From an uncultured Planctomycetaceae bacterium (GTDB taxonomy: Bacteria; Planctomycetota; Planctomycetia; Pirellulales; Thermoguttaceae): DNA of 36,161 bases. Both the position numbers and the translations under genes were made by a program. Positions 1,458 through 36,161 of this stretch are shown here, piece after piece (position 1 is the stretch's first letter; every line of letters begins with the position of its first letter). Location of the stretch: contig CAYGZI010000001.1 of assembly GCA_964354245.1 (NCBI GenBank), positions 1-36,161 of the forward strand. Direction: 5' to 3'. Under the pieces are notes generated by a model. The model was not told the DNA's origin. It worked only from the letters and a program-made list of their open reading frames with translations, and made no database searches.

Positions 1458-1646
1458 TGGAACTCATGTCCATGAACGGCCGGTAGCCCGGCCGTCGGGG
1501 GGCTTCGAGGCCGCTCCAAATGACGGGCTCACCGTTGTCCGTGCTATCGCGGATATGGTATGCTTTCAGGTTCGCGGCCCGCGTCCAAAGGGCTCACCCC
1601 TATCAGAAGCGGTTACGCCGCCCGATTCCCACTGGAAAGGCCGATC

Positions 1647-5272: not shown

Positions 5273-5793
5273 GGCCGCTCCTCCTGCAGAAGATCGTGAA
5301 GCATGGCTCTGGCACGCACCAGGCGTTGCCTGACCGCCGGTTCCGTTGTGCCCAAGGAAGCCGCGACGCCCGAACAGTTGCGTCCGTCCAGGTAGTAGAG
5401 CACGATGGCTTCACGGTAGTTCTGAGGGAGTTTGTGGATGGCCTCGTGCAGTCGCTCGCAAACGGCGTTGCCGCCGGCAGCCGGAGTCGATGGTTCATCC
5501 AAGAGCGGTTCCACTGGTTTCCGCCTACGGTGGAAGTTGATGCACTCTCGACGCGCGACCTGCAACAGCCAGGCACGGGCCCGCGCAGGTTCCCGCAGGC
5601 TGGAAGTCTTTGCGATAGCCTTCAGGAAGACGGCTTGCACGACGTCTTCGGCGTCATGGTAGTTCCGGGTATTGGCGAGACAGACCGCAAACACAGCCTG
5701 GGCATGAAGGCGGAACAGAGCACCAGGCATCGCCGCACCGCGATCATCCGGCGCCTGTCCGGCCCAGGACCTGTTGGAACTCATCTCGTTCAT
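5269..5793 (-). CDS. ECF-type RNA polymerase sigma factor
   Basis: 174 aa. Region 2 is DAEDVVQAVFLKA...AWLLQVARRECINFHRRR. Region 4 is LPQNYREAIVLYYLDGRNCSGVAASLGTTEPAVRQRLVRAR. It is translationally coupled to the anti-sigma gene. Confidence 0.85.
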   Translation of the reverse strand: MNEMSSNRSWAGQAPDDRGAAMPGALFRLHAQAVFAVCLANTRNYHDAEDVVQAVFLKAIAKTSSLREPARARAWLLQVARRECINFHRRRKPVEPLLDEPSTPAAGGNAVCERLHEAIHKLPQNYREAIVLYYLDGRNCSGVAASLGTTEPAVRQRLVRARAMLHDLLQEERP

Positions 5794-14837: not shown

Positions 14838-15259
14838 GGGAGTCGGCTCCGTGAGGTTCGTTCGACGGCCCGGCGCCACCGGGCGCAATAGCATAAGTCT
14901 AATCGCCAAAGGGCCGCTTGCCAAGAAACCCCTTGGGGTAGGTTCTCTGCGTGCGGGGTCTGCGCCAAACCGAGCCCTTGCGCAACTTTAACGGAGAATC
15001 ATTGTCGCGCTAATAATGCCCTAACGCAGCCGGGGATAATGAAGGTGGCGTCGCGAGGCTCCCGGACCGGCAAGGCCCGATGTGCCGGCCCGAGGAGCGG
15101 CCACGGTCCGCCGGCGGACGCTCGGAGGCAAGTAGAAGCCATAACGATCGGAAAGGAGGTGTAACGCTACCGGCCGAGCGAGTCGAAAATCGCGCAAGCA
15201 AGATCGTTGTCCACAGGATCATTCACACCACAGTCACCCACGATAAGGAGAGAACGTCC

Positions 15260-16270
15260 ATGAAACGGAACAACCGACGCTTTGGCTTTACGCTCGTCGA
15301 GCTGCTGGTGGTGATCGCCATCATCGGCCTCTTGCTCGCCCTGTTGCTGCCCGCGGTGCAGGCCGCCAGGGAAAGCGGACGCCGCTCCCAGTGTACCAAC
15401 AACCTGAAGCAGATCGGAGTCGGGCTGCACAACCACGAATCGGCGTACGGAAGACTGCCCACCGGCGGCGAAGGGACCGACTACTCCACGTCCCCGCCGA
15501 GCACGATGTTCGACCTCCACTCGACGTTCACCGCGATCCTGCCGTTCATCGAGCAGCGGGAAATCTACGACAAGATGAGCCTGAAATACAGCTACCGCGA
15601 CACCCGCTGGCCCGGCAACCAGGAGGCCGCCCAGTACGAGATCAAGACCTACGTTTGCCCCAGCAATCCGTTTTCCGACAGAAAGGACCCATTCGGCTAC
15701 GGCCAGCTCGACTACTATTCCACGGTCTACACCGACATCGACCCGGTCACCGGCCTGCGCAACAAGGCCACGCGCATGGACGGCGCTTTGGCAGTCCCCG
15801 CCACCTCCATAGCGAAGGTCTTTGACGGCGCCAGCAACACCATCGCCATCATTGAGGACTCGGGACGTACGTATCCCACCATCGAGTTCTACACGTTCTC
15901 GAAGTACCCCGACCCGGCCTGCGCAAGCGGCTTCGGGGACACGGCCGATTGCAGCGGCACGAGCCAGAACCGCGCGGTCAACCGCTGGGCCGATCCGGAT
16001 GCGGGGGGAAGCGGCGTTTCCGGCCCGCCCAACGAGTCCGGGAAGTACATCAACAACAACAGCACCCCGTTGGGCGGCCCACCCGACTGCCTGTGGAGCG
16101 CCAACAACTGCGGCTTGAACGACGAGCCGTTCTCGTTCCACTCCGGCGGGTGCAACGCCGTATTCGCCGACGGCAGCGTCCACTTCCTGTCCGAGACGAT
16201 CGACTTCCTCACCATCCGCCGCCTTGTCACCCGTGCTGAGCACGCCGAAGTGCCCTCGGGAGGCTGGTGA
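15260..16270 (+). CDS. DUF1559 domain protein with prepilin-type N-terminal cleavage/methylation motif
   Basis: MKRNNRRFGFTLVELLVVIAIIGLLLALLLPAVQAARESGRRSQCTNNLKQIG is the canonical planctomycete DUF1559 N-terminus. The RBS aaggagag precedes ATG 15260. The C-terminus is FHSGGCNAVFADGSVHFLS. Confidence 0.85.
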   Translation: MKRNNRRFGFTLVELLVVIAIIGLLLALLLPAVQAARESGRRSQCTNNLKQIGVGLHNHESAYGRLPTGGEGTDYSTSPPSTMFDLHSTFTAILPFIEQREIYDKMSLKYSYRDTRWPGNQEAAQYEIKTYVCPSNPFSDRKDPFGYGQLDYYSTVYTDIDPVTGLRNKATRMDGALAVPATSIAKVFDGASNTIAIIEDSGRTYPTIEFYTFSKYPDPACASGFGDTADCSGTSQNRAVNRWADPDAGGSGVSGPPNESGKYINNNSTPLGGPPDCLWSANNCGLNDEPFSFHSGGCNAVFADGSVHFLSETIDFLTIRRLVTRAEHAEVPSGGW

Positions 16271-22709: not shown

Positions 22710-23680
22710 GCCTGAGAATTCCCTTCACCCCCGTGGTCTACGAGCACGCCGCCCGCTTCGTCGGGCGGAGCCCGTGGGAGGTGTCGCGCGATCCGGAATT
22801 GATGTTTGCCGCACACCGCGCCGCCTACCTGGAATACCGTCAGCAGGTGATCGCGGTGGCCATCGATATCTACAATCTTGAGGCGGAGGCGTATGGGGCC
22901 AAGGTAGCCGCCTCGACTCCCGACGCGATCCCGGCCATCCGCCAGCCCTTGCTTGCCTCGATCGAAGAGGGAATCAACCTTCGGCCGTTCGACCCGGATC
23001 GGGACGGGCGGATCGCGATGATGCTCTCCGTCGGGCAGCGTCTCCGGCGGGAGTTTCCCGAGGCCGACGTGCGTCTGCCCGTGGGAGGCCCGTTCTCGAT
23101 CGCCTTCAACCTGCGCGGCATCAACAATCTCTGCCTGGATGCCGCGCTATGCCCCGAGAAGCTGGCCAAGATGCTGATGCAGTTGGCGGAGAACCAGGCG
23201 GTGCTCTGCCGGGCCGTGGCCAAAGCCGGACTGGACGTGGCATTCTTCGAGTCGGCCGCTGCGCCGCCGATTCTCTCTCCCACGCACTTCCACGAGCTGG
23301 AGATGCCGGCCCTGCGGCGCGTGCTGGAAATCGCGGCCGACTGCGCCGGTCATCCCGTGCCGTGCATCATGGGGGGAAACACCTATCCGGTCCTCGACGA
23401 CATCCTTTCCACGGGCACGAATTACGTCGCATGCAACGTGGAGACCGACCAGGCCGCCTTTGTCGAGCGGGTCTCCCGCACGCACCCCCACGTGACCATC
23501 CGGGTCAACCTCGACCCCTGCGTGGTCGCCTGCCGCGATGCCCAGCGGATCTATCGGGCGATCGACCATGTGTTGGAGATCGTCGGCGGCCGGGCCAACT
23601 GCATGATGGGCACTGCCGCCATGCCGCTGGAGACCCCGCCTGAGAATATCCGCCTGATCCGCGAGTACCTTGCCCGTTAG
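22706..23680 (+). CDS. Uroporphyrinogen decarboxylase (URO-D) family / MtaA-like protein
   Basis: GTG 22706 overlaps the upstream stop (GTGA). The length (324 aa) and C-terminal pattern ..[24 protein letters not shown] fit URO-D-fold proteins. The assignment is from memory only. Confidence 0.5.
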
Positions 23681-25278
23681 CCTTGCGGAGACTGGAGGCG
23701 GGCCAGGCGGCAGCCGAGCTTGACCAGCTTGTAGCCGCCGGCAAGGAGGATGCGGGCAATGGGGCGATGCCACGCCCGGAGCCGCGGCGAGCAGGCCGCC
23801 TTGACCCGGACCGCGGCGTAGAACTGATCGAGGAGTTCCTCGAAGGTCTGATCGGCCCTCACGTGCGGACCGGCGGCCACGGTGGGCAGCCGCTCGGCGA
23901 TTGAGCCCCCGGTGCAGCGGCCCTCGGGAAACGGAGCCACGGGGAGCAGCTCCTGGTGCTCGGCGACCATGGATTGCAGGGAGCGGTGCGGCAATCGGGC
24001 GAGGTTGCGCCGCACTTGCGTTAGCATCTCTGGATGGGCGACGATCGCGTCCACCCGATCCAACAAGCCTTGGACGGTCGGCGGAATGAGGAACCCGGTG
24101 GTCCCGTCCTCAATCCGGTCGGCGAGACTCCCGCGATTGACGGCGACCGGCGGCACGCGGCAGGCCCAAAGCTCGGAGAGCGTATAGCTGAACGTCTCCG
24201 GCACCAACGACAAGAGGAGCCCGAAATCGGCCTGAAGCCCGGCCAGCAACTCCGGCAGGCGGCAACGGTCGTACGCGGGGATTACGCTGACGCCCGGCCC
24301 TTGCAGCGGCCGACCCGACTCGCCGCAACCGAGCAGGACCACGTCGCACTGCCGTGTCAGCTTGGGCAAGGCTTGCGCGACGAGTTCCAGGCCCTTTTCC
24401 GGCGAGAGGCGGCCGAGCACCACCGCCGTGAGGGCTTGCGAAAAAACGGGGACAGGCACCTCGCCGCACGCCGTCTTCCCGCGGTTTTCGCACATCGGTT
24501 CGGAGCCAGTCCCCGTTTTTTCGCAAGCCCCCGGCCGTGCCCCTTGCCGGGCGGGCCGCGCGGCGTCCACGTGCGCGAGGGGCTCGATTCCGTGCGGAAT
24601 CACGTGCAATCGGGCCCCGGCGAGACGCGGCTCCAGGGCCAGCAAGTGGCGCTCGACCGACGGGCTCGGCGCTACCAGGGTCACGCCCGCCGACTGGACC
24701 ATCGCTACGAACCGCTCGCGGACCTCCAAGGCTTCCCCGACGGTCAAACCCGGGAAGAACCGATGGTGCCCGTTGTCGGCGAGGCACTCGGCCAGGCGAT
24801 GGGGCGGGCAAGACGTGCAGATTGTTCCCGGCCCATCCTCGCGCCGATCGCGGTAGCAGATGTGTATTGCCGGGCAGAACGGGTAATAGTCGTGCAGAAC
24901 GATGGCGGTGGGAAGCCCGGTCTGGAGGGCGTCCAGCGAATGCCCGGCCAAGGAGGAGACGACGATCGCCTGCACCCCGTAGACGTCCACGACCTCGCGG
25001 AGGATCGCGCGGTATCGCGGGTGAGCGGCGGCGGTGGCGAGGATCGGGCGATGGAGGTCCCAGCAGGCAATCGGCTGCGGATCGGCGAGATCGGCAAACA
25101 GGGCCACCCGCCTACCTATGCCCGAGATGCTGGCGACCGGCTTGAGAATGAGGTTTCTCCGGTTGCGGTCGGCGCGGCAATAGTCGGCCACCCACCGGGC
25201 CGCGCCTCCGCCCCAATCGTGCAGCAGGTGCAGTTGCACGGGCAGGCGAGTCACCGGCGAAAGCTCCCGGGCCTGCAT
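23677..25278 (-). CDS. Glycosyltransferase family 4 (GT-B)
   Basis: The C-terminal Rossmann half is VVLGRLSPEKGLE ... ETFSYTLSELWACRVPPVAV (E-x7-E). Start placed at ATG 25278 (MQARELS), 36 nt after the ATPase gene. An in-frame 99-bp palindromic insert sits at 24432-24530, in the interdomain linker. Confidence 0.8.
   Translation of the reverse strand: MQARELSPVTRLPVQLHLLHDWGGGAARWVADYCRADRNRRNLILKPVASISGIGRRVALFADLADPQPIACWDLHRPILATAAAHPRYRAILREVVDVYGVQAIVVSSLAGHSLDALQTGLPTAIVLHDYYPFCPAIHICYRDRREDGPGTICTSCPPHRLAECLADNGHHRFFPGLTVGEALEVRERFVAMVQSAGVTLVAPSPSVERHLLALEPRLAGARLHVIPHGIEPLAHVDAARPARQGARPGACEKTGTGSEPMCENRGKTACGEVPVPVFSQALTAVVLGRLSPEKGLELVAQALPKLTRQCDVVLLGCGESGRPLQGPGVSVIPAYDRCRLPELLAGLQADFGLLLSLVPETFSYTLSELWACRVPPVAVNRGSLADRIEDGTTGFLIPPTVQGLLDRVDAIVAHPEMLTQVRRNLARLPHRSLQSMVAEHQELLPVAPFPEGRCTGGSIAERLPTVAAGPHVRADQTFEELLDQFYAAVRVKAACSPRLRAWHRPIARILLAGGYKLVKLGCRLARLQSPQG
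24432..24530. repeat. Family A-related palindromic element, copy 4 (in frame in GT4)
   Basis: Perfect 22-bp arms 24432-24453 (gggcttgcgaaaaaacggggac) and 24509-24530. Total is 99 bp = 33 codons. Host peptide is ..ACEKTGTGSEPMCENRGKTACGEVPVPVFSQA.., read in a different element frame from copies 1-3. Confidence 0.8.
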
Positions 25279-25313
25279 CGCATCTCGCCCTCCTGAAAAG
25301 AACACGCCCTTCT

Positions 25314-26084
25314 TCACGCGGCGCTTCGTTGGGCGCCGGCTGCGAACGACTCGGTGTACGCGGCGATCACCTCCTGCTTGGGTCCGAACCTGCGCGCGGC
25401 GCCGTGGTCGAGCCAAAGGACCCGGTCGCACAACTGGGCCAGCGCCCCCAGATCGTGGCTCACCACGATCACCGCCCGGGCACTGCACATCAGCGAGCGG
25501 ATCCGCTCCCGGGCCTTGGTCTGGAACGCCAGGTCGCCGGCGCTGAGCACCTCGTCGACCAGGAGGATGTCGGGCTCGATGGCCGTGGCAATGGAGAAGG
25601 CCAGGCGCACGAGCATACCGGCCGAGTAGTAGCGGACGGGCATTTCGAGAAACTCGCCCAGCTCGCTGAAGTCGGCGATGGCTTGCATCTTCCGACGGAC
25701 CGACTTGGGCGACTCGCCCTGAAGGTAACCGCGGTAGGTGATATTCTGCCAGCCGGTGGCGTCGTGCTCGAAGCCCAGGCCGATCTCGAACAGGGAGCTG
25801 ATCCGGCCGCGGACCTGGCGCCGGCCGCTGGTGGGCGGGTAGATGCCGGCCAGGAGCTTCAGCAGCGTGCTCTTGCCGGCGCCGTTGTGCCCGATCACGC
25901 CGATCCGGTCCCCTTCCTCGATCCGCAGGCTCAGGTGGTCCAGTGCGCGGACCTCGAAGGTGGCCTGTTTCGAGCGGCGGAACAGTCCGTGGAGCAGATA
26001 CTCCTTCAGGCTCACGCGCCCGAAGCGGCGCACGCGGAACATCAGTCCGACGTCGTCCAGCTCGATCAGGGGCACGGGGGGCAT
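25314..26084 (-). CDS. Polysaccharide-export ABC transporter ATP-binding protein (Wzt/TagH/KpsT-like, no C-terminal carbohydrate-binding domain)
   Basis: Walker A GHNGAGKST, signature YSAGMLVRLAFS, and Walker B ILLVDEV. It is 256 aa. Confidence 0.9.
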   Translation of the reverse strand: MPPVPLIELDDVGLMFRVRRFGRVSLKEYLLHGLFRRSKQATFEVRALDHLSLRIEEGDRIGVIGHNGAGKSTLLKLLAGIYPPTSGRRQVRGRISSLFEIGLGFEHDATGWQNITYRGYLQGESPKSVRRKMQAIADFSELGEFLEMPVRYYSAGMLVRLAFSIATAIEPDILLVDEVLSAGDLAFQTKARERIRSLMCSARAVIVVSHDLGALAQLCDRVLWLDHGAARRFGPKQEVIAAYTESFAAGAQRSAA

Positions 26085-26092
26085 CGGCGGTC

Positions 26093-26875
26093 TCAGAGAT
26101 AGAAAATCAGCCTGCGTTCGGTCTTCCAGAGGATCAGCGAGGCCAAGGCCGCGGAAGTCAAGGCAGCGGCCGCCCCCAAGGCGAACGTGGCCGGCGAAGG
26201 GACCGCCCCGTCGAGAATCGGCGCCCGGATCAGCTCGAGGAACGTCGCCGCGGGGTTAATCGCCACGAACCAGTCCAGGCCCCGCTGGCGGAGCAGGTCG
26301 GCCGGGTAGATGATCGGCGTGACGTAGAACAGGATCTGGATCAGCACCTCGGTCAGGTGCTGTGTATCCTGGAACATCACGTTGATGACGCCCATACACG
26401 CGGCCACCGACCAGCCCACCACGAACAGCATCAACAGGGTCGGCACCAGACTCACCAACGCCGGGACGTTGGAAAACCCGTTCAGGCACCAGACGAACAC
26501 GAGGACTACCACGAGTCCAAGCAGCAAGTGGATGCCGGCCCCGAGGGTGGCCCGCAACGGATAGACCGCCAATGGGGCGGGATACTGGCGGATATAGGAC
26601 TCCCCGTCGAGGAAACACCGGCACCCCTGACTCATGACGGTGACGACGAAGTTCCATGTGACCAGTCCGGCCAGCAGGAACGGGCCGTAGGTGCGGACGT
26701 CGGCGGCGAATAGCGTGCTGAAGACCGTACAGAGCACGGCGGTCATGGCGATGGGGTGCAAGAGCGACCACCCCACCCCAAGCATCGACCGCCGGTAGCG
26801 CCTGCGCAGGTCCATCGTCACCAGGGCGAGCCAGAAGTGGCGAAGCCGCCAGACGTTGCGCAGATAACGGGTCAC
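26093..26875 (-). CDS. ABC-2 type polysaccharide-export permease (Wzm/TagG/KpsM-like)
   Basis: LVTMDLRRRYRRSMLGVGWSLLHP is the typical ABC-2 N-terminus, followed by six hydrophobic segments. I prefer GTG 26875, behind aggag with a 7-nt spacer; the ORF-track maximum is TTG 26956. Confidence 0.85.
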   Translation of the reverse strand: MTRYLRNVWRLRHFWLALVTMDLRRRYRRSMLGVGWSLLHPIAMTAVLCTVFSTLFAADVRTYGPFLLAGLVTWNFVVTVMSQGCRCFLDGESYIRQYPAPLAVYPLRATLGAGIHLLLGLVVVLVFVWCLNGFSNVPALVSLVPTLLMLFVVGWSVAACMGVINVMFQDTQHLTEVLIQILFYVTPIIYPADLLRQRGLDWFVAINPAATFLELIRAPILDGAVPSPATFALGAAAALTSAALASLILWKTERRLIFYL

Positions 26876-27011
26876 GCCGAAGCTCCTGATTGCGTCCGGG
26901 ACGTTCCACCCGGACTGTGGGGTCTTCCCGACCCCAAGCAGTCGCTTTCCCCCCAAAAGTGTTTGCGGCCGGGCGGGGCAGTATACAAGACGCTCGGGAC
27001 GAAGATCAATG

Positions 27012-29990
27012 TCAAAGAGGGTTTGCCTGGTCGATCTCGCTCCGCCACACGTTGCGGTGCTGCTCGAAGCGGTTGTCGTTGAAGATCCGGTAGAGCGGCT
27101 TGACCGGACCGCAGCCGAGCCGCGTCTGACGGTCCTGTGCCTCCAGCGCGACGCGACGGGCGTGCAACAGCGCCCGCGGCCCGCCCCCCAAGCTCGCCCG
27201 CGCCAGCCAATCCAGTCCGCGATAGACCGCCAGCAGGCGGCGAACCGCCGCGGCGTGCCCCGCGGGCAGCAGGCCCGGGGCCCGGCCGCCGAGATACTCC
27301 GCCAACTGCACGGCGTAGTCCAGGTCCGTGCTGGCGTGCTTCCAGTACGACTTGTGGTAGCCGAGGCACCTGTAGAACAGATCGAGCGCCGCCTGCGGGT
27401 CGCGGCCGTCGAAGGCGTAGCGGATCCCGCCCAACGTGCGGTTCAGATACCAGGCCCGAAGGTCTTCGATCTCCGCGCGGGGGCTTTCCGTGACGCGGGC
27501 TCCGGGATAGTTGAGGAAAACGCCGAGGGTCCGGGGGATGGACTTGGTCTTCAGGCGAGGCAACACGCGGTACTTGAACTCGGTGTCGCCGGCCGCGCCG
27601 AAGCTCGGGTCGTAATAGCCGCAGCGGTCGTGGATCGAGCGGCGGTACAGCGCCCCGACCCAGGACAAGTAGCACGTATCGAGGTACGGCAGCGTGGGAT
27701 GGTAGCCGGTGCGGCCGTAGAACATCACGTCGTCTTTCCAGGTGCCGTGCTCATCGACCGCCGTCATCAGGCTGCTTCCCGTGACCCAATCGAGCGCGGG
27801 ATCGCGGTCCAACTCGCGGGCCAGGACTTCCAGGGCGTCGGGCAAGAGCGTCTCGTCCACCCCGAGGAAGGCCAGGTACTCGCCCCGCGACAACTGGATC
27901 CCGCGGTTCCACGCCGCTTGGACTGTCTCTCGCTCGGCCGACCGGGCGTAGACGACCGGCATGCGCAGCGACTCGGCGAAGCGGGAAAAGACCTCGTGCG
28001 GCCGGTCGGGCGAGCCGCTGTCCACGAGGATCACTTCCGCGGCCCCCGATCGCACGAGCGTCTGGTTGTTGATCGCATTGAGAAAAAACGCGAGCTTGTC
28101 GGCCGCCCGGTAGAGTGAGACGACGATCGACGCGCGATACGCGCCGCTGGTGCGGCGGTCGTCGATGGTCTCGAAGGGCTTGGGCGGATTACGGCGATGC
28201 TCCTCCCGTGCCCGCCGCAGCAGCCCTTCGCACGCCGCCGCGCGGCCCTGCACCGGGCCGAACATTGCCTGGGCGGCTTCAGCCTCGCGCGTGTAGCCGT
28301 GCCGGCAAAGGCACGCGGCGGTCGCCGGCAGATGTCCGAGGCGGTCCTCGCCGAAAGCCCGCACGATCCGCAGCTCGTAGGCCGCTGCCATGAGGTCGTT
28401 GCCGCGGACGCGCTCCAGGCGGGCAATCTCCTTCCAGATCCGCGCCTGGTCCACGTGGAACCCCTCTGCCAAAGCCCAGAACCCCTGGAGCTTCCCGGCC
28501 ACGTCGCGCGGCGAGTCTTCCGGCATTCGCAGCAGCTTGCGATAGGGCCCGGCCATGGCCGCGGCCCTTTGCGCCTTGTAAGCGATCGCGGCGTCGCCGC
28601 GAAGGGCGCTCTCCCGAAGCCAGCCGCGCACGATGCCGGGGAGACGGTGGGGCGCACTTCGGGCCAGCCCGTAGAGCCGCCGGATCTTCTGCCGCCAGCC
28701 GCCCGGCAAGACCGTGCGGGCCACGGCGCGGACCGCGCGCCGCACCCGGCCGGGCTTGGACCGCTTCCAGGCCTCGTACTCGCGCATCAGGCGGCCGTAC
28801 CATTGGCCCACCTGGTCGCGCTGGGCGCGGTCGCTGCTTGGGGGACTGGCGTAGATGTCGGCCAGCGTGGGGCCGTCGGGGCCCGGCCGGCGCCGCTCCA
28901 GGGCGCGGACCAGGCGCTCGCGGTAGCCGTCGTAATCGGCCAGCATCGCCTGGATCTGCGGCAGGCAGCCGTAGACGTTGCGGATGTCCAACGCGACGTG
29001 CGGGACCTCGGGCATGGACTCGCGGAGGAAGCGGCAGACCCCCGCCCCCGTGCCGATCACGGTCGGGCAGCCGGCGAACAACGCCTCCAGCGCGATCAGG
29101 TTCAGCGTGTCGTAGCGCGAGGGGAGAAAGACCACCGAGCGCCCGGCGAACAGGCGGGCCAGCTCATCCGGAGTCATGACCGGACGGATGCTCACGTGGT
29201 CCAAGCGGCTGGCCATCATCCGGCGCAGATGAGCGTGGGAGCCGTCCTCGCCGATGAAGCTCTCCGGCCCGATGATGCTGGCCGTATGGTACAGCTCCCG
29301 CGGCAGCCACCAGACCAGATCGAGGAAGATGTCGGGGCCCTTGAGCTTCTCGGTGCGGCCCACGAAGCAGAGATCGGGGGGCCCGCCGGAAGGCTCGGGC
29401 AGGACGGGCCGCGGCGGTTCCATGATCCGCAAGGGATTGAGGTACTGGGATCCCAGGTCCGAAAGCCGCCGCCACTCGTCGAGGTACGCGCGGCTGATGC
29501 CGTAGCGGATGTCCGCAGCGCAGTACTGCAGCCGCTCCCGCAGGTCGAGCGTGGTGAGGGGGTCCTCGGCAGCGTTCCAGGCCATGCGGAGCGAGTTCGA
29601 CAGGCGCCCGTGCATCGAAAGCACGCTCCGCTGGAAGCGGACGCCGTGCTCGGCCAGCGCCGGGCCGAGCATCGCCCCGAGATTGCGGAAATCGGCGATC
29701 TCGACCACGTCGAAGTCCCGGCCCGCCACGGTGGCGGCGACGTTGCCGGCCTCGACGAAGGTGGAATAGCTCCACGGCGGCGGGTGAGCGCCGTGCGCCA
29801 AGCGGGGGAACGCCGCGTCGTAGGGACGCACCATGGGGATCATCTGGGCGTTCGCCGGGCGAGGGACTTCCGGCTTCTCCTCTACGCCCAGGTAATAGAA
29901 GTCGATGTGGGGGTTGGTGTTGATCAGCCGGCGGTAGACCGTCTGCCCCCCCCCGACGCTGTGGAACAGGTCGACCTCCACGACCAACAC
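27012..29990 (-). CDS. Bifunctional glycosyltransferase: N-terminal GT4-like domain, ~250-aa helical spacer, GT2 domain, C-terminal extension
   Basis: GT4 part: RVLVVEVDLFHSVGGGQTVY ... GRTEKLKGPD ... DTLNLIALEALFAGCP. GT2 part: ASIVVSLYRAADKLAFFLNAINNQT..EVILVDSGSPD..LAFLGVDE. The start is uncertain. GTG 29990 is proposed because 29991-30203 of the ORF is an off-frame reading of a duplicated methyltransferase 3' end. Confidence 0.8.
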   Translation of the reverse strand: MLVVEVDLFHSVGGGQTVYRRLINTNPHIDFYYLGVEEKPEVPRPANAQMIPMVRPYDAAFPRLAHGAHPPPWSYSTFVEAGNVAATVAGRDFDVVEIADFRNLGAMLGPALAEHGVRFQRSVLSMHGRLSNSLRMAWNAAEDPLTTLDLRERLQYCAADIRYGISRAYLDEWRRLSDLGSQYLNPLRIMEPPRPVLPEPSGGPPDLCFVGRTEKLKGPDIFLDLVWWLPRELYHTASIIGPESFIGEDGSHAHLRRMMASRLDHVSIRPVMTPDELARLFAGRSVVFLPSRYDTLNLIALEALFAGCPTVIGTGAGVCRFLRESMPEVPHVALDIRNVYGCLPQIQAMLADYDGYRERLVRALERRRPGPDGPTLADIYASPPSSDRAQRDQVGQWYGRLMREYEAWKRSKPGRVRRAVRAVARTVLPGGWRQKIRRLYGLARSAPHRLPGIVRGWLRESALRGDAAIAYKAQRAAAMAGPYRKLLRMPEDSPRDVAGKLQGFWALAEGFHVDQARIWKEIARLERVRGNDLMAAAYELRIVRAFGEDRLGHLPATAACLCRHGYTREAEAAQAMFGPVQGRAAACEGLLRRAREEHRRNPPKPFETIDDRRTSGAYRASIVVSLYRAADKLAFFLNAINNQTLVRSGAAEVILVDSGSPDRPHEVFSRFAESLRMPVVYARSAERETVQAAWNRGIQLSRGEYLAFLGVDETLLPDALEVLARELDRDPALDWVTGSSLMTAVDEHGTWKDDVMFYGRTGYHPTLPYLDTCYLSWVGALYRRSIHDRCGYYDPSFGAAGDTEFKYRVLPRLKTKSIPRTLGVFLNYPGARVTESPRAEIEDLRAWYLNRTLGGIRYAFDGRDPQAALDLFYRCLGYHKSYWKHASTDLDYAVQLAEYLGGRAPGLLPAGHAAAVRRLLAVYRGLDWLARASLGGGPRALLHARRVALEAQDRQTRLGCGPVKPLYRIFNDNRFEQHRNVWRSEIDQANPL

Positions 29991-30025
29991 CCGCAGCGCG
30001 CCCCGCGCGGTGCGGGACGTGGAAG

Positions 30026-30232
30026 TCAGGCCGCCGCCCGGCTCAGCGTCGGCAGCGGGGCATACGGGCACTCCGAGTGCCGCATCAGCGCTAGGTGGAA
30101 CGAGTCCGGGGCATTCGGTCCGCTCCGGACCCAGTCGTCGCGGAAGTACCGCACCGCCGCGTCGTGATGGACAAAGCCGTTCCGCCCGCATAGTTTCAAC
30201 CACCAGTCAGGACCCTCCACGGTCTGGTGCAA
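30026..30232. repeat. Direct repeat copy A (207 bp), paralogous to 31877-32083
   Basis: Ungapped manual alignment gives about 185 of 207 identical (about 89%), at an offset of 1851 bp. Weaker similarity continues about 40 nt below both copies. Confidence 0.85.
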
Positions 30233-30283
30233 CGTCACGATACTCGCTGGAGTGCTGCAGCCCGCCACCTCGGCCGGTATCAT
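30026..30283 (-). pseudogene. 85-codon fragment homologous to the C-terminus of the methyltransferase at 31877-32830 (relic, or a small stand-alone ORF)
   Basis: ..LHQTVEGPDWWLKLCGRNGFVHHDAAVRYFRDDWVRSGPNAPDSFHLALMRHSECPYAPLPTLSRAAA compares with ..LHQTVEGPDWWLKLCERNGFVHHGAAVRYFRDDWIRSEPNAPQSFHLVLTRRAESLWAPLPTLSRAAA. Its ATG overlaps the radical SAM stop (ATGA at 30281-30285). Confidence 0.5.
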
Positions 30284-31776
30284 CAGCTCGCGGTGACGCT
30301 CAGCTCCAGATCACGGTCGACTTGATCGTGAGTCACGGCTTTCGTGCCCATTACCTTCTCTCTGTGCCTGCGGAACGCTTCCGAGGCCAAATAAGGAACG
30401 TGCGGCCGATGGCCTGAGCTGACGCTGTTGTCGTCCAGCTTGTAGGCCGCATTACCGACGTACTCATAGGCGAACTCATGGAGCTGGAGCAGCCTTTCGG
30501 TGGGAACGGCCGACAGGTTGCACCCGATCTCGTGATAGTACAGGAACTTGCTGAAATCCATGTAGTCGTGAACCTTGCCCATGCTCTTCGCAACGGCCCA
30601 GAGCGGACTGTCGGGATAGGGCACAAGGATCGAGAAGGCGTTTTCGTCCGCCCCGAGTTCCTTGGCGAACTCGATCGTCTCCATGATTTGCTCCTCGGTT
30701 TCATCGACCATGCCGAACACGTACGAGCAGCGGACCTTCCAGTCGTACTCTTGAAGCAGACGGACTTTTCGCCTCATGTGGTCCTTGGACTCCCGAGGGC
30801 CTTTTCCGATCGCTTTCATGATCGTCTCGTTGCCGGACTCAATCCCGGGGCCGACGTACCGCACCCCGCTCGCGAACATGGCGTCGCAGACCTCCCGGTC
30901 GATCTGGTCGAGACGGATCTGAACGCTGATGTTCAGCTTGACGCCCGTCTCGACGATCCGGCGGGAAAGCTCGAGCACTCTCTTCCTGTTGCTCGTGTAA
31001 CTGTCGTCCATGACGAAGAGATTGGGGATGCCCATCGCCTCGATTTCGTGAAGCTCTACAACGATGTTGTCGATGTCCCTCCACCGGACCAGCGTGCCTG
31101 CTGCTCCGCAGAATGCGCACTTACCCGGACAACCGCGGCTGAACATCGCCGCCGACTGCGGTGCGCGGACGTCCCTGGAGTAATCCATGTACTCCTGGTA
31201 TTCGAAGAGATGCCTGGCTGGAATGGGGCAACGGTTCAGGTCGATGGCCTTTGCCGTGGCGGCGGCCGATTGATGGAGTCTCAGCCTGTATCCCCTGGTC
31301 TGGCCGGAGTATCCGCCCCAGCGGTATGCAATTCCCGTGATATCGGCAGGGTCCTGTTTCTTCAGGACGTGATCCACAATCGCCACGACGGACTCTTCGG
31401 CCTCTCCGATGCAGACGAAATCGGCCTTCGAGGTGTCGAGCGTCGCCTGGGGCAAGGCGCTCACGTGCGGCCCCCCGAAAATGACCACGGTCGAGGGAGA
31501 GCGTTTCTTCACGAGCTCGATAATGGCAGTTGCCTGATGATACAGGGGCGTCGTGCAACCGATTCCCAGAAACTCCGGACGGTCGGCCAATGCCCGCTCC
31601 ACCGTTTCCTCCACGGTCAGATCATACAGGGCCGCGTCAGTCACTTTGACGTCATGCCCCGCGTTTTCAAGCGCCGCGGCAATATAGGCCAATCCTAGTG
31701 GCATGCGGCGGGTGCGGTAGTGCGCGAACTTATAGCACAACCCATCGCTCGGATAAACTAGACCTATTGTAGCCAT
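30283..31776 (-). CDS. B12-binding domain radical SAM protein (class B radical SAM, methylase-like)
   Basis: The N-terminal Rossmann-like B12-binding region is LAYIAAALENAGHDVKVTD..VVIFGGPHVSALP. The radical SAM cluster motif is CPGKCAFC (CX3CX2C). Start is ATG 31776 behind aaggaagg. GC samples are 52-56%, against about 74-75% in the flanking genes. Confidence 0.85.
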   Translation of the reverse strand: MATIGLVYPSDGLCYKFAHYRTRRMPLGLAYIAAALENAGHDVKVTDAALYDLTVEETVERALADRPEFLGIGCTTPLYHQATAIIELVKKRSPSTVVIFGGPHVSALPQATLDTSKADFVCIGEAEESVVAIVDHVLKKQDPADITGIAYRWGGYSGQTRGYRLRLHQSAAATAKAIDLNRCPIPARHLFEYQEYMDYSRDVRAPQSAAMFSRGCPGKCAFCGAAGTLVRWRDIDNIVVELHEIEAMGIPNLFVMDDSYTSNRKRVLELSRRIVETGVKLNISVQIRLDQIDREVCDAMFASGVRYVGPGIESGNETIMKAIGKGPRESKDHMRRKVRLLQEYDWKVRCSYVFGMVDETEEQIMETIEFAKELGADENAFSILVPYPDSPLWAVAKSMGKVHDYMDFSKFLYYHEIGCNLSAVPTERLLQLHEFAYEYVGNAAYKLDDNSVSSGHRPHVPYLASEAFRRHREKVMGTKAVTHDQVDRDLELSVTAS

Positions 31777-31876
31777 AACATTCCCTTCCTTTAGGGCTTG
31801 GTGTGCACCGTTATCCGATCTTCTCAACCGAAGCGTGACGCCCGCAGCCGGCCCCGGGCCGCGCGGGACGTTGCCC

Positions 31877-32083
31877 TCAGGCGGCCGCCCGGCTCAGCGT
31901 CGGCAGCGGGGCCCAGAGCGACTCCGCACGCCGCGTCAGCACCAGGTGGAACGACTGCGGGGCATTCGGCTCGCTCCGGATCCAGTCGTCGCGGAAGTAC
32001 CGCACCGCCGCGCCGTGATGGACAAAGCCGTTCCGCTCGCACAGTTTCAACCACCAGTCAGGACCCTCCACGGTCTGATGCAA
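31877..32083. repeat. Direct repeat copy B (207 bp), paralogous to 30026-30232
   Basis: See copy A. This copy is the intact 3' end of the methyltransferase gene. Confidence 0.85.
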
Positions 32084-32830
32084 GGCCACTCCGTTGACGA
32101 CGTCCGGCCTGGGAGACACCGACATCACCACGACCCCGTTGGGCTCCAGGTGGGCGTCGATGTTCTCCAGCACCCTCCCCAGCTTGTCGCGGTGGACGTG
32201 CTCGATGACCTCCCAGGCGGTGATGACGGTGAACCGCAAGGGGCGCGGCTCCTCGCCAAGGCGGCGCCCGGTCACCCTGAACGGCTCGGTGACGTCGGCC
32301 GTGAACAGGTAATCGGGGATCGTGGACCACTCGGCCCGGCCGCGGACCTTCGAGTAATCGCTCCCCTCGATCCCGACGGCCAGACAGCCCATCTGGAGGA
32401 CCGTACGCACGAACCCGCCGCCCGAGCACCCCAGGTCGAGCACCCGCAGGTCCGCGGGATCGATCCAGCGGGCCAGCTTGAGGTTGAAGGGGAGGTTGGT
32501 GCTGTTGTCCTGCTTGGTGCCCCAAGGCATGACGTGGTCGGGGCTGTCGTAGGCCACCGGTTTCTCGGTGTGTACGTCGATCTTCAGGCCATCGTAGCCC
32601 AGCCGGCCGAAGAGAGATCGGCCCACCAAGGCATACAGTTCGGCCAGCTCGCCCCCAGCGCCGTCCTCCGCAGAGCCGCGGACGTGGCGGAGCAGCTCGG
32701 CCGTCCGGTCGTTCAGGTGGGCTATCAGGTCGCCGGTCTGGTTGCTGATGTGGGCCATCAGCCGGTCGGCCACCTTCTCGCTGCCGGTGATCCTCCGCAC
32801 CGCGTGCAACAATTGCCCTTTCAAGGACAC
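31877..32830 (-). CDS. Class I SAM-dependent methyltransferase
   Basis: Motif I is RVLDLGCSGGGFVRTVLQMGCLAVGIEGSD. I prefer start GTG 32830 behind aaaaggagga with a 7-nt spacer; the ORF-track maximum is TTG 32860. Confidence 0.8.
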   Translation of the reverse strand: MSLKGQLLHAVRRITGSEKVADRLMAHISNQTGDLIAHLNDRTAELLRHVRGSAEDGAGGELAELYALVGRSLFGRLGYDGLKIDVHTEKPVAYDSPDHVMPWGTKQDNSTNLPFNLKLARWIDPADLRVLDLGCSGGGFVRTVLQMGCLAVGIEGSDYSKVRGRAEWSTIPDYLFTADVTEPFRVTGRRLGEEPRPLRFTVITAWEVIEHVHRDKLGRVLENIDAHLEPNGVVVMSVSPRPDVVNGVALHQTVEGPDWWLKLCERNGFVHHGAAVRYFRDDWIRSEPNAPQSFHLVLTRRAESLWAPLPTLSRAAA

Positions 32831-32864
32831 GGTTGGGTCCTCCTTTTCGGCTCGCAGCAACGAT

Positions 32865-32996
32865 TTACGGCTCGCAGTAATAAACCTTGTCCTCCACGGC
32901 GAAACGGTAGCCGTGCTCGCGAAGGTATGCGCAGAGCCGGTCGTGGTCGAACCGGCCCTCTCCGTCCACGTGGACCTCGATGACCAGCGCCGGCCG
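32865..32996 (-). pseudogene. 43-codon coding-like relic in frame behind the TGA of the upstream methyltransferase (FkbM-type C-terminus-like)
   Basis: Hand translation after TGA 32997-32999 gives RPALVIEVHVDGEGRFDHDRLCAYLREHGYRFAVEDKVYYCEP, then TAA at 32865-32867. Composition is protein-like. The pattern ..VIEVH..L..L...GY.F resembles FkbM methyltransferase C-termini. Confidence 0.35.
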
Positions 32997-33938
32997 TCAC
33001 TGGTGGGTAAACCATAGCGACCCGCCGTAGAAGAAGTTCTCCTGACCGCTCGGGAGGGTCACGATCGGCGGCGCGAGGGTCTGCGAAAGCTCCGCGTCGA
33101 TCTGCACGAAATGCGACGGCATTAAGACCCGCACCCGGTCCCTTGACGCCAAGAGGTACACGGCCAGCAAGTACTGCTCGTTCCAATACCAATAGCGGAA
33201 CATCTCGGGATAGTCGTTGGGCAGCGTGACGTCGTGGAGGTGGACGATCACGCCGGGTGCAAGCCGCGGGATCACGTCGAGCATCAGCACCGTCACGTCC
33301 GAGTTCATGAACGAGCGGTGGCTGCCGTCGATAAAGAGGATGTCCCCCGGCTGGAGCGTCTCGAAAATCCCCAGGTCCGCCTCCTCAAGGCCCCTGCGCA
33401 CGACCTCGTCGCAGATGCGGTCGATCGCCGCCCGGGGCTCCGGGTCGATCGAGACGATCCGCGTGGGCAGGCGGTGGTCGGAGATGGCGCGGCGGGCGAA
33501 GCAGGTGCTCACCCCCGAGCCGACCTCCAGGTACACCCGGGCTCGCGACCGGGCGACGAAGTAGTAGAGGATCGCCAGGTCCAGCGCGGTCATCGGCCCG
33601 CCGACCCAGCCCGGCTCGGGCGCGGTCTCCGAGGTGAATTGAGCCGGTATGGCGGCCAGCCAGGGGTGCAGGTCTCGGACGCCCCGGATCACCTCGCGGT
33701 AGTCGTTGTGGCGCTTGTCGAACAGGGCCACGAGGCCCGGATGCGAGGGGTGCGTGTGGCCCCACCGCGGTTGGAGCCTCCGCGACGGCGGGTAATCCAA
33801 CGGCATGAGGACCTGGGCCGTCGGGCCCCCTTCGAGCACGGGCATTCCCGAGAGCTTTTCGGCCGCCACTGCCCCATTTCCTCCAGGCCCGCTGCCGGGG
33901 GGCTTCCGCTTCCTGCGAACGAGTTCCATCAATCCCAT
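32997..33938 (-). CDS. Class I SAM-dependent methyltransferase (Methyltransf_24-like)
   Basis: VYLEVGSGVSTCFARRAI (motif I) and ILFIDGSHRSFMNSDV. Start is ATG 33938 behind gaggagg, which overlaps the upstream stop; the ORF-track maximum is TTG 33944. Confidence 0.7.
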   Translation of the reverse strand: MGLMELVRRKRKPPGSGPGGNGAVAAEKLSGMPVLEGGPTAQVLMPLDYPPSRRLQPRWGHTHPSHPGLVALFDKRHNDYREVIRGVRDLHPWLAAIPAQFTSETAPEPGWVGGPMTALDLAILYYFVARSRARVYLEVGSGVSTCFARRAISDHRLPTRIVSIDPEPRAAIDRICDEVVRRGLEEADLGIFETLQPGDILFIDGSHRSFMNSDVTVLMLDVIPRLAPGVIVHLHDVTLPNDYPEMFRYWYWNEQYLLAVYLLASRDRVRVLMPSHFVQIDAELSQTLAPPIVTLPSGQENFFYGGSLWFTHQ

Positions 33939-33950
33939 CGCCAAGCCTCC

Positions 33951-34901
33951 TCACGCCGCGCGGGCCGTGGCCGGCGCGGGCTGGACCGAGTCCCAGCCAA
34001 TCTCGTCCACCTCGCCCCAAACGTCCCAACTGGCGGTGAACAGCCGGGCGATCTCCGGCGGGAACAGGTCCAACAGGCCGGGCACCCAGCCCAACTTGTC
34101 CCCGTGCCCCTGGATCACCGGCGTGCTCCCGATGCTGACCCGCGGGATGCCGCTGGACTTCTTCTTCACCAGGACGCTGACCTGCCAATCGTAGCACTTG
34201 GCCCTGGCCTGGCGGCAGTCGAAGCCGGCCCCGATCAGGTTGTAGATCAGGTGCAGCGGCGTCCAGAGGTAGCAATGGCCGAGCATCAGGCGCGAAAGGG
34301 CCGAGGGGACGCTGATCGCCACAACCCCCCCCTCCTCGAGGTCATCGAAGAGCTTGTCCAGGAAGCGGCCGGGATAGCGCTGGTGCTCCAGGACGTGGCT
34401 GCACCAGATGGCGTCGAACTGCCGGCCGAAGTCGGCCTCCAGGTAGTCGCCCGAGTACTGGGCGTCGAACGAGCGATCGATCTCGATTGTCGTCACGTCC
34501 TTGCCGAGAAACTGGAAGATCCGGGCTGATGTCCCGTCCCGCGACCCGATATCCAGCACGCTGGAGAAGGGGTACTCCGCGATGAGCCTCGCCAGCGCCA
34601 AGTGCCCGTAATAGAGGGTATCCTCGAAAACGCGGCCCCCGGCTTCCACGCGGAATTGCGTATAGGGGTACTGCGGCGCCGGACGCACAAGCACCTCCAG
34701 GCCGCTGCCACGGCAATGGTAATGCCGCTCGTCGACCGGGACCGAGTTTTTCGCCTCGACCCGGTACACGTCCAGGTTGATGAGTCTTTTGCGGGCCAGC
34801 CTGGCGGTCGCCTGGACGGCTGATGCCCAAGAAAGCCGTTTTAGGAAACGCGCGGGGCGACCGCCAACCAGCGCGCCAGCGGCCCGCTTGAGGAGTGACA
34901 C
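33951..34901 (-). CDS. Class I SAM-dependent methyltransferase; first gene of the glycan operon
   Basis: SVLDIGSRDGTSARIFQFLGKDVTTIEID (motif I) and AIWCSHVLEHQRYPGRFLDKLFDDLEEGGVVAISVP. I prefer start GTG 34901 behind aaggagg with a 5-nt spacer. The 96-codon upstream extension runs through a hairpin repeat. Confidence 0.75.
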   Translation of the reverse strand: MSLLKRAAGALVGGRPARFLKRLSWASAVQATARLARKRLINLDVYRVEAKNSVPVDERHYHCRGSGLEVLVRPAPQYPYTQFRVEAGGRVFEDTLYYGHLALARLIAEYPFSSVLDIGSRDGTSARIFQFLGKDVTTIEIDRSFDAQYSGDYLEADFGRQFDAIWCSHVLEHQRYPGRFLDKLFDDLEEGGVVAISVPSALSRLMLGHCYLWTPLHLIYNLIGAGFDCRQARAKCYDWQVSVLVKKKSSGIPRVSIGSTPVIQGHGDKLGWVPGLLDLFPPEIARLFTASWDVWGEVDEIGWDSVQPAPATARAA

Positions 34902-34954
34902 GGGAACCTCCTTGTTCAGAACCGATTCCACCCTTGTGCGACGCCGGAAAAGGC

Positions 34955-34985
34955 GCCGGAAAAGGTGCCAGGCACCTTTTCCGGC
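34955..34985. repeat. Family A half-element: 15-bp perfect-stem palindrome in the divergent intergenic region
   Basis: gccggaaaaggtgcc-a-ggcaccttttccggc, preceded by a partial direct duplicate gccggaaaagg (34943-34953). It shares the ccggaaaagg..ccttttccgg ends with the copy at 7022-7102. Confidence 0.8.
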
Positions 34986-35318
34986 AACTGGGTCGTGCGG
35001 GCAGGCGGTCGCGCACTGCGGGGCCTGCCCGAAAGGGCCCGGCATCGGCTCGGGGGCACAAGATACCCGCCACCCGGAAACGGGACAAGAGCAAAACCAC
35101 GGGCCCCGCCGTCGGAAGGGTACATGCGGCGAGCAGACGACACCCGCGGCGGGGCCCGAGGGGAAGGAGCCCAATCCTGCGCCCGCCATTTCTCGTCTTG
35201 TCCCGGCCCCGCGAGACGCGTTATAACGGACGCCTCAACATCGGGGCGCATCCCATGGAGGGCCCGGGTGCCGCGCACCAGCCGCGCCGCACCCCGAACG
35301 CGCAAGGAGGACGCAGCC

Positions 35319-36161
35319 GTGGCCGAGCACATCCTGGTGACCGGGGGGGCCGGATACCTCGGGTCCATCATGGTGCCCATGCTTTTGGACCAGGGATTCG
35401 GCGTCACCGTCCTGGACAACTTCCGCTACGGACAGAATTCGCTCTTGGACTGCTGCGGGCGGCCCGGTTTCAGCGTCATCCGCGGCGACTGCCGCGACCG
35501 GGACACCCTGGCCCGGGGACTGGCCAAGGCCGACTGGGTTGTTCCCCTGGCGGCCGTGGTCGGTGCCCCGGCCTGCCAGAACGACGAGGTCGCTGCCCGG
35601 TCGGTCAACCTGGACGCCATCAAGCTCCTGGTCGAGATCCGTTCGCCGCGCCAGCGCATCGTCTATCCGACGACCAACAGCGGCTACGGCGTGGGCGAGC
35701 CGGGCAAGCACTGCACCGAGGAGACCCCGCTCCGCCCGATCTCGCTCTACGGCGTCACCAAGGTCGAGGCCGAGAAGGCCGTTCTGGACGCCGGCCAGGC
35801 GATCACCTTCCGGCTGGCCACCGTCTTCGGCATGTCGCCCCGCATGAGGATCGACCTGCTGGTCAACGACTTCGTCTACCGGGCCGTGACCGACCGCACC
35901 GTGGTCGTCTTCGAGGGGCACGCCAAGCGCAACTACATCCACCTCCGCGACGTGGCCCGGGCGTTCTTGCACGCCATCGCGCAGTTCGACCGCATGGAAG
36001 GCCAGCCGTACAACGTCGGGCTGAGCGACGCCAACCTCTCGAAGCTCGAGCTCTGCGCGGAGATCCAAAAACAGGTGCCCGGCTTCGTCTACCTGGAGGC
36101 CCCGGTCGGCGAGGACCCGGACAAACGCGACTACATCGTCTCCAACGAGAAGATCGAGCGG
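35319..36161 (+). CDS. NAD-dependent epimerase/dehydratase (extended SDR), 3' end outside window
   Basis: It is not in the ORF track because no stop falls within the window. Hand translation from GTG 35319, behind aaggagga, gives VAEHILVTGGAGYLGSIMVPMLLDQGFGVTVLDNF (GxxGxxG) and SLYGVTKVEAEK (YxxxK). The frame is open for 281 codons to the window end. Confidence 0.85.
   Translation, partial: MAEHILVTGGAGYLGSIMVPMLLDQGFGVTVLDNFRYGQNSLLDCCGRPGFSVIRGDCRDRDTLARGLAKADWVVPLAAVVGAPACQNDEVAARSVNLDAIKLLVEIRSPRQRIVYPTTNSGYGVGEPGKHCTEETPLRPISLYGVTKVEAEKAVLDAGQAITFRLATVFGMSPRMRIDLLVNDFVYRAVTDRTVVVFEGHAKRNYIHLRDVARAFLHAIAQFDRMEGQPYNVGLSDANLSKLELCAEIQKQVPGFVYLEAPVGEDPDKRDYIVSNEKIER

Follow-up and report, generated by a model that had tools for sequence, protein, structure and literature searches.

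The stretch of DNA analysed here, referred to as the window, comprises 36,161 nucleotides (nt) from an uncultured Planctomycetaceae bacterium (contig CAYGZI010000001.1, positions 1 to 36,161) and carries on its minus strand a cluster of co-directional genes in which a single radical S-adenosylmethionine (SAM) gene lies between a methyltransferase (MT) and a glycosyltransferase (GT) gene and is bracketed by two copies of a long direct repeat. In coding direction, the locus starts with the MT (31877..32830), a class I SAM-dependent enzyme of the Methyltransf_23 type and the source of the repeat. It has 317 amino acids (aa) as called in the public collection, where the gene starts 10 codons later than the mechanical open reading frame (ORF) of 327 aa. 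It is followed by the B12-binding (class B) radical SAM gene (30283..31776, ATG start, 497 aa), by a chimeric reading frame of 85 codons termed ORF85 (30026..30283), and by a GT (27012..29990) that encodes a fusion of GT4 and GT2 domains with about 992 aa. The mechanical ORF of the radical SAM gene has 514 aa; homologues begin with MA(T/R)I, and gene calls give 497-498 aa. For the GT, the start is likely the GTG at 29990 (MLVVEVDLFHSVGGGQ), because the N-termini of its relatives at L004, L014 and L019 (the L-numbers designate loci used for comparison) align from there. The mechanical GT ORF of 1063 aa, reaching up to 30203, was discarded, as its 5' end is spurious and crosses the downstream repeat copy in a different frame. 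We favour the reading, with a probability of about three in four, that a foreign radical SAM piece of 1.6 kb was joined into the MT-GT junction and that 252 nt of the target were duplicated in this event.

A repeat search revealed a single long direct-repeat family within 28000-34000, with copies at 29987-30238 and 31838-32089 that are 252 nt each, align without gaps at 87% identity and are spaced 1851 nt from start to start. Judged by its length and identity, this match cannot be chance. Copy B (31838..32089, minus strand) consists of the final 70 codons of the intact MT with the stop codon (31877-32089) and 39 nt of downstream spacer (31838-31876). Copy A (29987..30238, minus strand) holds a decaying copy of the MT 3' end (30026-30238) together with the spacer; the MT stop codon is still present at 30026-30028 and the spacer leads straight into the GT start. 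A first-pass annotation, made from the letters of the sequence, had already described the repeat as the 3' end of the MT plus its spacer, with an ungapped core of 207 nt at about 89% identity (about 22 mismatches) and a patchy extension of about 40 nt past the stop codon. All of this is borne out by our self-comparison of the window: between 30026-30232 and 31877-32083 there are exactly 22 mismatches in 207 nt (89%), and the similarity beyond the MT stop continues for about 40 nt more, to about 29987 and 31838. The spacer copies are about 68% identical to each other, compared with 89% for the coding parts, and the coding part of copy B is under purifying selection (ratio of nonsynonymous to synonymous rates, omega, 0.2-0.3 against L003 and L004). 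Two additional features of the repeat were considered and rejected. An extension of 17-20 nt into the GT start, including a 7-nt gap, was dropped, since the respective stretch of copy B fits a donor-type leader better. A hairpin in the spacer seemed to be supported by compensatory changes from one copy to the other, but its folding energy does not stand out from that of shuffled sequence (z = -1.6 to +0.8).

The gap between the two copies is filled exactly by a foreign block of 1599 nt (30239..31837, minus strand; 252 + 1599 = 1851). In agreement with the earlier annotation, domain analysis identified the B12-binding radical SAM gene as the only gene between the repeats. The block is composed of a leader of 61 nt (31777-31837) with the sequence AAGGAAGGG resembling a ribosome-binding site (RBS), the coding sequence, and a donor-type 3' flank of 44 nt (30239-30282). 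In a sensitive blastn comparison, the window from 31847/31849 to 30244/30282 matches L044, L047-L049 and L009 at 85-87% nt identity, and the match begins in the last bases of copy B and ends in the first ones of copy A, thereby taking in about 60 nt of leader, the coding sequence and about 44 nt of 3' flank. The loci closest to the insert form three sets (L009-L013, L044-L046 and L047-L049). The donor-type operon has the order GHMP kinase, Methyltransf_23, FkbM, Methyltransf_13/14 C-methyltransferase, epimerase and GT2, with the radical SAM gene in last position. The guanine-plus-cytosine (GC) content of the donor-type contigs is 56-61%, and with 55-57% the radical SAM gene matches its surroundings there. 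Homologues with 83-90% aa identity are present in more than 10 clusters and those with 60-77% in dozens more, some of them annotated as Desulfuromonadaceae, Rhodospirillaceae or Nitrospirae; the next relatives of the flanking genes are much farther away (62% aa for the MT and 68% for the GT). The nearest relatives of the radical SAM gene sit in other lineages and contexts, unlike those of its neighbours. As a DUF1559/N_methyl gene adjoins the radical SAM gene in L047-L049, the donor-type lineage looks planctomycete-like, and the window also encodes such a gene at 15080-16270; the donor probably belonged to the same phylum and was no remote source. We regard loci of the L009/L044-L049 type as proxies for the donor, the best of which (L009) differs by a synonymous divergence (dS) of about 0.58.

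Several relatives show the junction in its empty form, as the first-pass annotation had expected if a foreign gene split and duplicated an ancestral MT-GT junction; together with the match over 1599 nt at 85-87%, these empty sites support that proposal. The filled arrangement was found in L003 (96% nt identity to the window; MT, radical SAM, ORF85 and GT, with the repeat) and in L017 (GT 93% aa; radical SAM, MT remnant, GT and ABC genes), and among the relatives compared the insert is restricted to the window and these two. In L004 (GT 83% aa) the order is Methyltransf_24, MT and GT, without radical SAM gene and without repeat, the MT lacking 86 internal residues. L018 (GT 84% aa) retains an MT stub with the last few codons plus the spacer, followed by the GT. 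The MT immediately precedes the GT in L019 (GT 68% aa) and in L014/L015 (GT 58%, MT 62% aa), and in L014 the two genes even overlap, with ATGA serving as MT stop and GT start, without any spacer. In none of the relatives compared are both copies present with no gene separating them, an arrangement that would have argued against the proposal, and none has a second MT at the position of ORF85. The window, L003 and L017 are about 0.1 apart in dS, whereas the window, L004 and L018 are mutually about equidistant at 0.34-0.42. A single gain on the branch leading to the window, L003 and L017 would account for this distribution; ancestral presence would need three to four separate precise losses. Along the repeat, L004 has the copy-B state at some of the fixed differences and the copy-A state at others, in alternation, which fits an ancestral state better than the product of a single crossover between the copies.

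Besides the insertion, the cluster has undergone several gene-sized changes in these relatives. In the L004 MT (2888-3571), residues 143-228, which form the SAM-binding core, are deleted between two GTGCTGGA-like microhomologies, and in L018 (1083-1218) only a few terminal MT codons and the spacer remain; the MT at the junction was degraded repeatedly in lineages without the radical SAM gene. The second Methyltransf_23 gene of the window (33951-35189, 412 aa) is missing from L004 save a remnant of 55 nt (1834-1888) that is 91% identical to window 34982-35036. L003 has a complete FkbM-type (Methyltransf_21) gene at 1256-2110, between Methyltransf_24 and Methyltransf_23, of which the window retains only about the last 44 codons (32865-32996, minus strand); 744 nt are missing, with a 7-nt overlap at the junction (32990-32996). 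There is no trace of this gene in L004 or L018.

Both joints between insert and recipient lie at short microhomologies, with the donor represented by proxies that are 85-87% identical. At joint J1 (31839..31848, minus strand), the end of copy B, recipient GCTGCGGGCG (GCTGCGGGTG in copy A) meets donor-type GCTTTGGGTG; recipient GCTGCGGG(C/T)G and the donor-type sequence agree at about 8 of 10 nt just before the shared leader. At joint J2 (30232..30240, minus strand), the start of copy A, the donor-type flank (ending in TTGCGTCGGCT in L009) passes into recipient GTGGCCT (copy B) or GTGACGT (copy A). Here the microhomology is short and imperfect, with about 5 of 7 positions shared between GTG(G/A)C(C/G)T and GTCGGCT. 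Because both joints are located at such short microhomologies, we infer that they were formed by illegitimate recombination and neither by site-specific nor by homologous recombination.

The hallmarks of mobile elements that were looked for are absent from the region. Inverted repeats of the attC type (at least 30 nt) are absent from 28000-34000, and so from within and beside 29987-32089, and no integrase, transposase or recombinase domain was detected among the window ORFs scanned with Pfam. Neither promoter-like nor terminator-like sites were found in 29800-32300, and there are no Rfam matches in 29500-32500. Transposons and insertion sequences are characterised by a transposase, terminal inverted repeats and a short target-site duplication of 2-15 bp. 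An insert that consists of the radical SAM gene only, without terminal inverted repeats and with a duplication of 252 nt, rules out this type of element, and the lack of an attC-like inverted repeat and of an integrase domain in the scanned ORFs rules out an integron cassette. The label "cassette-like" used in the earlier annotation would therefore be misleading if it were taken to mean an integron cassette or transposon. That the insert is a genomic island seems unlikely, given that the scanned window ORFs have no recombinase domain and that only one gene, within an operon, was inserted.

Based on these data, the following course of events is the most likely. In a high-GC, planctomycete-like bacterium, whose cluster would direct synthesis of a methylated glycan exported by an ABC (ATP-binding cassette) transporter, the MT would have been directly followed by the GT4-GT2 gene in a recent ancestor shared by the window, L003 and L017. 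A piece of 1.6 kb from a lineage of lower GC (56-61%), likewise planctomycete-like, would then have entered this junction, bringing along the radical SAM coding sequence together with its leader and 44 nt of its 3' flank. With the duplication of the 252-nt target (MT 3' end and spacer), the upstream copy would keep the MT whole, and the downstream copy would preserve the native 5' context of the GT. All this most likely happened in a single event: either the fragment was caught at a break whose long staggered ends were subsequently filled in, or replication switched its template to foreign DNA and returned to the chromosome 252 nt behind the exit point. Thereafter, the radical SAM gene would have been read within the operon, which we presume from its shared orientation, its own RBS-like sequence and the failure to detect promoter-like or terminator-like sites; it has been retained by purifying selection, and the MT fragment decays neutrally as ORF85. 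The data show directly the repeat, how far the foreign block extends, the empty sites of relatives and the modes of selection, and from these we infer how the ends were joined, the transcription through the operon and the chemistry of the enzyme.

Other routes to the same arrangement differ in how much of it they can explain. A simple tandem duplication fails outright, as it cannot yield repeat, insert and repeat followed by the GT and would duplicate the insert too. There is next to no chance that the layout was created during assembly: the window appears to be metagenome-derived and short-read unitigs break at the repeats (Logan contigs, four metagenome runs; molecules with copy B linked to the GT, a sign of excision, were not seen among them, although contigs ending at the repeats could not reveal any), but three independent assemblies agree, and that of L003 spans the MT, both repeat copies (246 nt, 89%, spacing 1851), the radical SAM gene and the GT start. 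In addition, copies of only 87% identity would not collapse in assembly. Since the independent assemblies L003 (ENA) and L017 (JGI) show an identical layout, the repeat is not an assembly artefact. A more serious competitor is a Campbell-type integration, in which a circle from a related strain, consisting of the radical SAM block and the 252-nt segment, integrates by a single homologous crossover. One crossover of such a circle is expected to leave an insert that exactly fills the gap between two repeats, and the divergence of the spacers beyond that of the coding parts, with a compensatory pair common to the spacers of copy B and of the unduplicated L018 and an L004-like spacer in copy A, may indicate two alleles. 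This route, however, only moves the problem, as both illegitimate joints would still be needed earlier in another genome, and no precursor locus is present among the 49 loci fetched. Moreover, the sites behind the allelic signal number two or three, and two of these pair in a stem and could flip convergently. We thus consider an integrating circle fairly unlikely and favour an illegitimate insertion in one step.

Very unlikely in our view is an old origin of the radical SAM gene and the duplicated junction, with the empty sites in L004, L018, L019 and L014/L015 arising when the two copies recombined with each other. Direct repeats as long as 252 nt are capable of this, L004 and L018 carry other deletions in the cluster, and the single copy of L004 is B-like in its coding part and A-like in its spacer. 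Nevertheless, at least three to four independent precise losses would have to be assumed instead of one gain, the ATGA overlap without spacer in L014 is unlike the product of a deletion between repeats, and the two copy-A states of L004 amid B-like coding sequence do not fit a single crossover. Likewise, the gene is 85-87% nt identical to genes of matching composition in different operons of lower GC, where the MT and GT have no such relatives. Highly improbable is the possibility that ORF85 is what remains of a complete second MT paralogue (in the order MT, radical SAM, second MT, GT), with the similarity maintained by gene conversion. The cluster does contain several methyltransferase genes, and gene-sized deletions are common in relatives (the FkbM remnant of the window, the MT deletions of L004 and L018), but donor-type sequence reaches up to the first base of copy A and leaves no room for another MT. 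The duplication also takes in the non-coding spacer and stops exactly at the foreign sequence, and no relative offers a second MT as a model.

Composition had been used in the first-pass annotation as an argument for foreign origin. Over their full length, the radical SAM gene has a GC content of 0.59 and a third-position GC content (GC3) of 0.76, the MT 0.67 and 0.90, and the GT 0.70 and 0.90, and the drop in GC coincides with the borders of the radical SAM gene. The contrast with the cluster is real (GC3 0.84-0.91 in the cluster genes; z = -2.9 for the radical SAM gene against 7 of them), and the short samples on which the claim had been based, 52-56% against 74-75%, overstated it. By itself, composition is weak evidence and would not decide the case. 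Equally low values are found elsewhere in the window (1560-2486 and 3941-5793), for a class I methyltransferase (GC 0.58, GC3 0.74) and for an anti-sigma/ECF (extracytoplasmic function) sigma pair (GC 0.58-0.62, GC3 0.70-0.71).

Some observations do weigh against a foreign insertion in one step, or limit what can be read from it. Compared with all 21 window genes, the radical SAM gene is no outlier in composition (z = -0.9). The clusters of L004 and L018 are decaying, the former with an internal MT deletion and without the second Methyltransf_23 gene, the latter with the MT almost gone, and for these two loci taken alone a loss of the insert by recombination between repeats could have produced the empty site. 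The true donor is not among the loci, and with proxies at a dS of about 0.58 the crossover points and the extent of microhomology are approximate. Synonymous divergence is unusually low in the repeat, so that the duplication is not datable by dS, and the compensatory stem pair that the L018 spacer has in common with copy B, while the L004 spacer resembles copy A, hints at an allelic exchange outside the simple model.

The low synonymous divergence becomes obvious in comparison with L004: between copy B (window 31877-32083) and L004 (3365-3571) there are 6 synonymous differences in 51.5 sites inside the repeat and 10 in 24.5 sites just upstream of it, and the flanking genes have a dS of 0.34-0.38. 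We therefore rejected a dating of the duplication from the dS between the copies (0.17-0.21) relative to that between window and L004 (0.34-0.38), as the dS of the repeat is low in every comparison. Low synonymous divergence or the spacer pattern could reflect constraint at the nucleotide level or exchange of the segment between lineages. ORF85 itself, located on the minus strand with its ATG overlapping the radical SAM stop (TGATG), takes its first 15 codons from the donor 3' flank and the other 70 from the copied MT 3' end. It is open in the window, L003 and L017, with omega values of 1.09, 0.92 and 1.32 in the three pairs; it departs from MT-like constraint (binomial test against an omega of 0.37, P = 0.014-0.04), has lost conserved residues in L017 (for example W to S in the DWW motif) and has no Pfam match. 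Probably it is a decaying, neutrally evolving remnant that happens to stay open and no functional gene. The radical SAM stop varies in this clade: in the window (30283-30285) the protein ends with VTAS, its TGA overlapping the ATG of ORF85 by 1 nt, and in L003 (4690-4695) and L017 with VTAGR, one codon later, with an ATGA overlap.

In this context, a bolder interpretation would be that the 252-nt unit is a cis-acting element needed by the GT, such as an internal promoter or a translation-initiation context, and that the event was a template switch onto foreign DNA. We think this quite unlikely. If true, it would explain both the survival of only an insertion that duplicates the unit and the synonymous conservation between lineages, and the event would be an example from nature of replication that switched to a foreign template and left a long duplicated target behind, a way of acquiring genes for which there is hardly any record in bacteria. 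In a weaker form, this interpretation would take ORF85 for a newborn chimeric gene.

Concerning the inserted gene, the protein combines the two defining features of the class B (B12-binding) radical SAM superfamily. Its N-terminal cobalamin-binding domain, at residues 42-150 of the 514-aa ORF, is recognised by PF02310 with 80.5 bits against a cut-off of 32.1, and PF04055 scores 66.9 bits (cut-off 29.5) for the radical SAM core, in which the CX3CX2C iron-sulfur motif reads CPGKCAFC. None of the NCBIfam equivalog cut-offs scored for this class (BchE, HpnJ, HpnR, PhpK, MCR glutamine C-methyltransferase, AprD4 and TsrM-type) was reached, the best being BchE with 143.7 versus 481 and HpnJ with 133.9 versus 578, the others lower. 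The nearest solved relative is AprD4, over the core only (E 1e-17). The protein thus shares B12 domain, radical SAM core and CX3CX2C motif with BchE, HpnJ, HpnR, PhpK, TsrM, TokK and AprD4, but stays far under the cut-offs of these named enzymes and differs from them in its genomic context of glycan tailoring. The subfamily is uncharacterised, and we found no description of it in glycan clusters in the literature. With omega values of 0.19 (window versus L003) and 0.09 (versus L009), the gene is under purifying selection. Sugar-activating and sugar-methylating genes constantly accompany it, and its place of insertion, with a methyltransferase on one side and a glycosyltransferase on the other, belongs to a cluster that includes an ABC-2 exporter. 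For these reasons, the enzyme probably modifies a sugar of the exported glycan by radical chemistry, most likely by C-methylation. Two homologues, P0142 and P0143, are longer (849-853 aa, 76-77% identical over the matched part) and contain a LAGLIDADG-type domain (PF14528), which suggests an intein-like insertion in a highly conserved enzyme.

The neighbouring genes are all encoded in the same direction. Downstream of the GT follow an ABC-2 permease (26093-26956), an ABC ATPase (25314-26084) and a glycosyltransferase of the GT1 family (23677-25488), and these ABC genes are syntenic with L017; upstream of the MT are a Methyltransf_24 gene (32997-33944) and the second Methyltransf_23 gene mentioned above. 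The genes downstream of the GT indicate glycan export dependent on an ABC transporter. A mechanical minus-strand ORF at 35235-36068 has a GC content at first codon positions of 0.92 and a GC3 of 0.67, pointing to a wrong frame or strand, and the region 35235-36161 matches an NAD-dependent epimerase/dehydratase gene of L004 (89.6% nt) on the strand opposite to the cluster. Because this gene lies on the opposite strand, the cluster would start at a divergent intergenic region near 35190-35290. In representative genomes, only two relatives of the GT fusion were found, both in cyanobacterial metagenome-assembled genomes, with 46% and 38% identity and in unrelated context, so that they shed no light on the junction. 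Outside the close clade, GT4-GT2 fusions (L001, L002 and L023-L035) are mostly 43-48% identical and located on low-GC contigs (31-41%); FkbM-type methyltransferase genes often adjoin these distant fusions, and their distribution looks patchy across phyla. As for the organism, the window sequence is present in sediment and wetland metagenomes, and besides the DUF1559/N-terminal-methylation protein it encodes ECF sigma factors and a large Ser/Thr kinase; in view of DUF1559, we take this gene content to be planctomycete-like. At 5897-8605 (minus strand) lies a gene for a 902-aa protein of the DPP-IV/prolyl oligopeptidase family, in which residues 178-228 additionally match the VHL beta domain (PF01847, E 3.7e-8), a domain best known from eukaryotes.

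The proposed insertion has parallels in known rearrangements. Microhomology-mediated template switching of the FoSTeS/MMBIR type (fork stalling and template switching/microhomology-mediated break-induced replication) is known mainly from eukaryotic and E. coli rearrangements. It likewise gives an insertion bounded by microhomology with a duplicated flank at the exit point, as from a fork re-entering behind it, but here the template would be exogenous DNA and a role of replication is a proposal only. Campbell-type integration, as used by suicide plasmids and some integrative elements, also leaves an insert between direct repeats of a few hundred bp copied from the target; in our case plasmid, integrase or backbone sequence is lacking, and one gene is joined by its ends to the repeat at microhomologies. 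The laboratory analogues are double illegitimate recombination (DIR; Hulter and Wackernagel, 2008, as given in the reference list of PMC12359135) and its short-patch form SPDIR (bioRxiv 10.1101/2023.11.22.568220), in which foreign DNA without homology to the chromosome is taken up and linked to it by microhomology at either end, with no need for a recombinase or mobile element. The SPDIR events described there are microindels, in contrast to a 1.6-kb gene with a 252-nt target duplication. Finally, evolutionary units that span the 3' end of an ORF, the intergenic region and the 5' end of the next gene are described for clusters of tandem paralogues in a study in Mol Biol Evol (2008, PMC2568036). 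Our case is comparable in that the duplication takes in the end of one gene and the intergenic spacer as far as the start codon of the next, without a whole ORF. The published case concerns recombination between tandem paralogues, ours a duplication that occurred once, together with a foreign insertion.

Taken as a whole, the case belongs to a known type, in which a glycan cluster gains a gene through illegitimate recombination, and it overturns nothing. Gain and loss of tailoring genes in such clusters are known as well, but the joints are rarely kept well enough to read the mechanism. Here, the empty and the filled site are both preserved, as are the two joints, and donor-like sequence covers the insert over its full length, untranslated flanks included. 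Together, these would illustrate how a single gene can settle inside an operon with no mobile element involved, leaving both neighbours intact thanks to a long duplication of the target. The radical SAM subfamily, with 60-90% aa identity across many contigs, some of them annotated to different phyla, seems to move between sugar-tailoring operons and may be the more useful lead than the insertion event itself.

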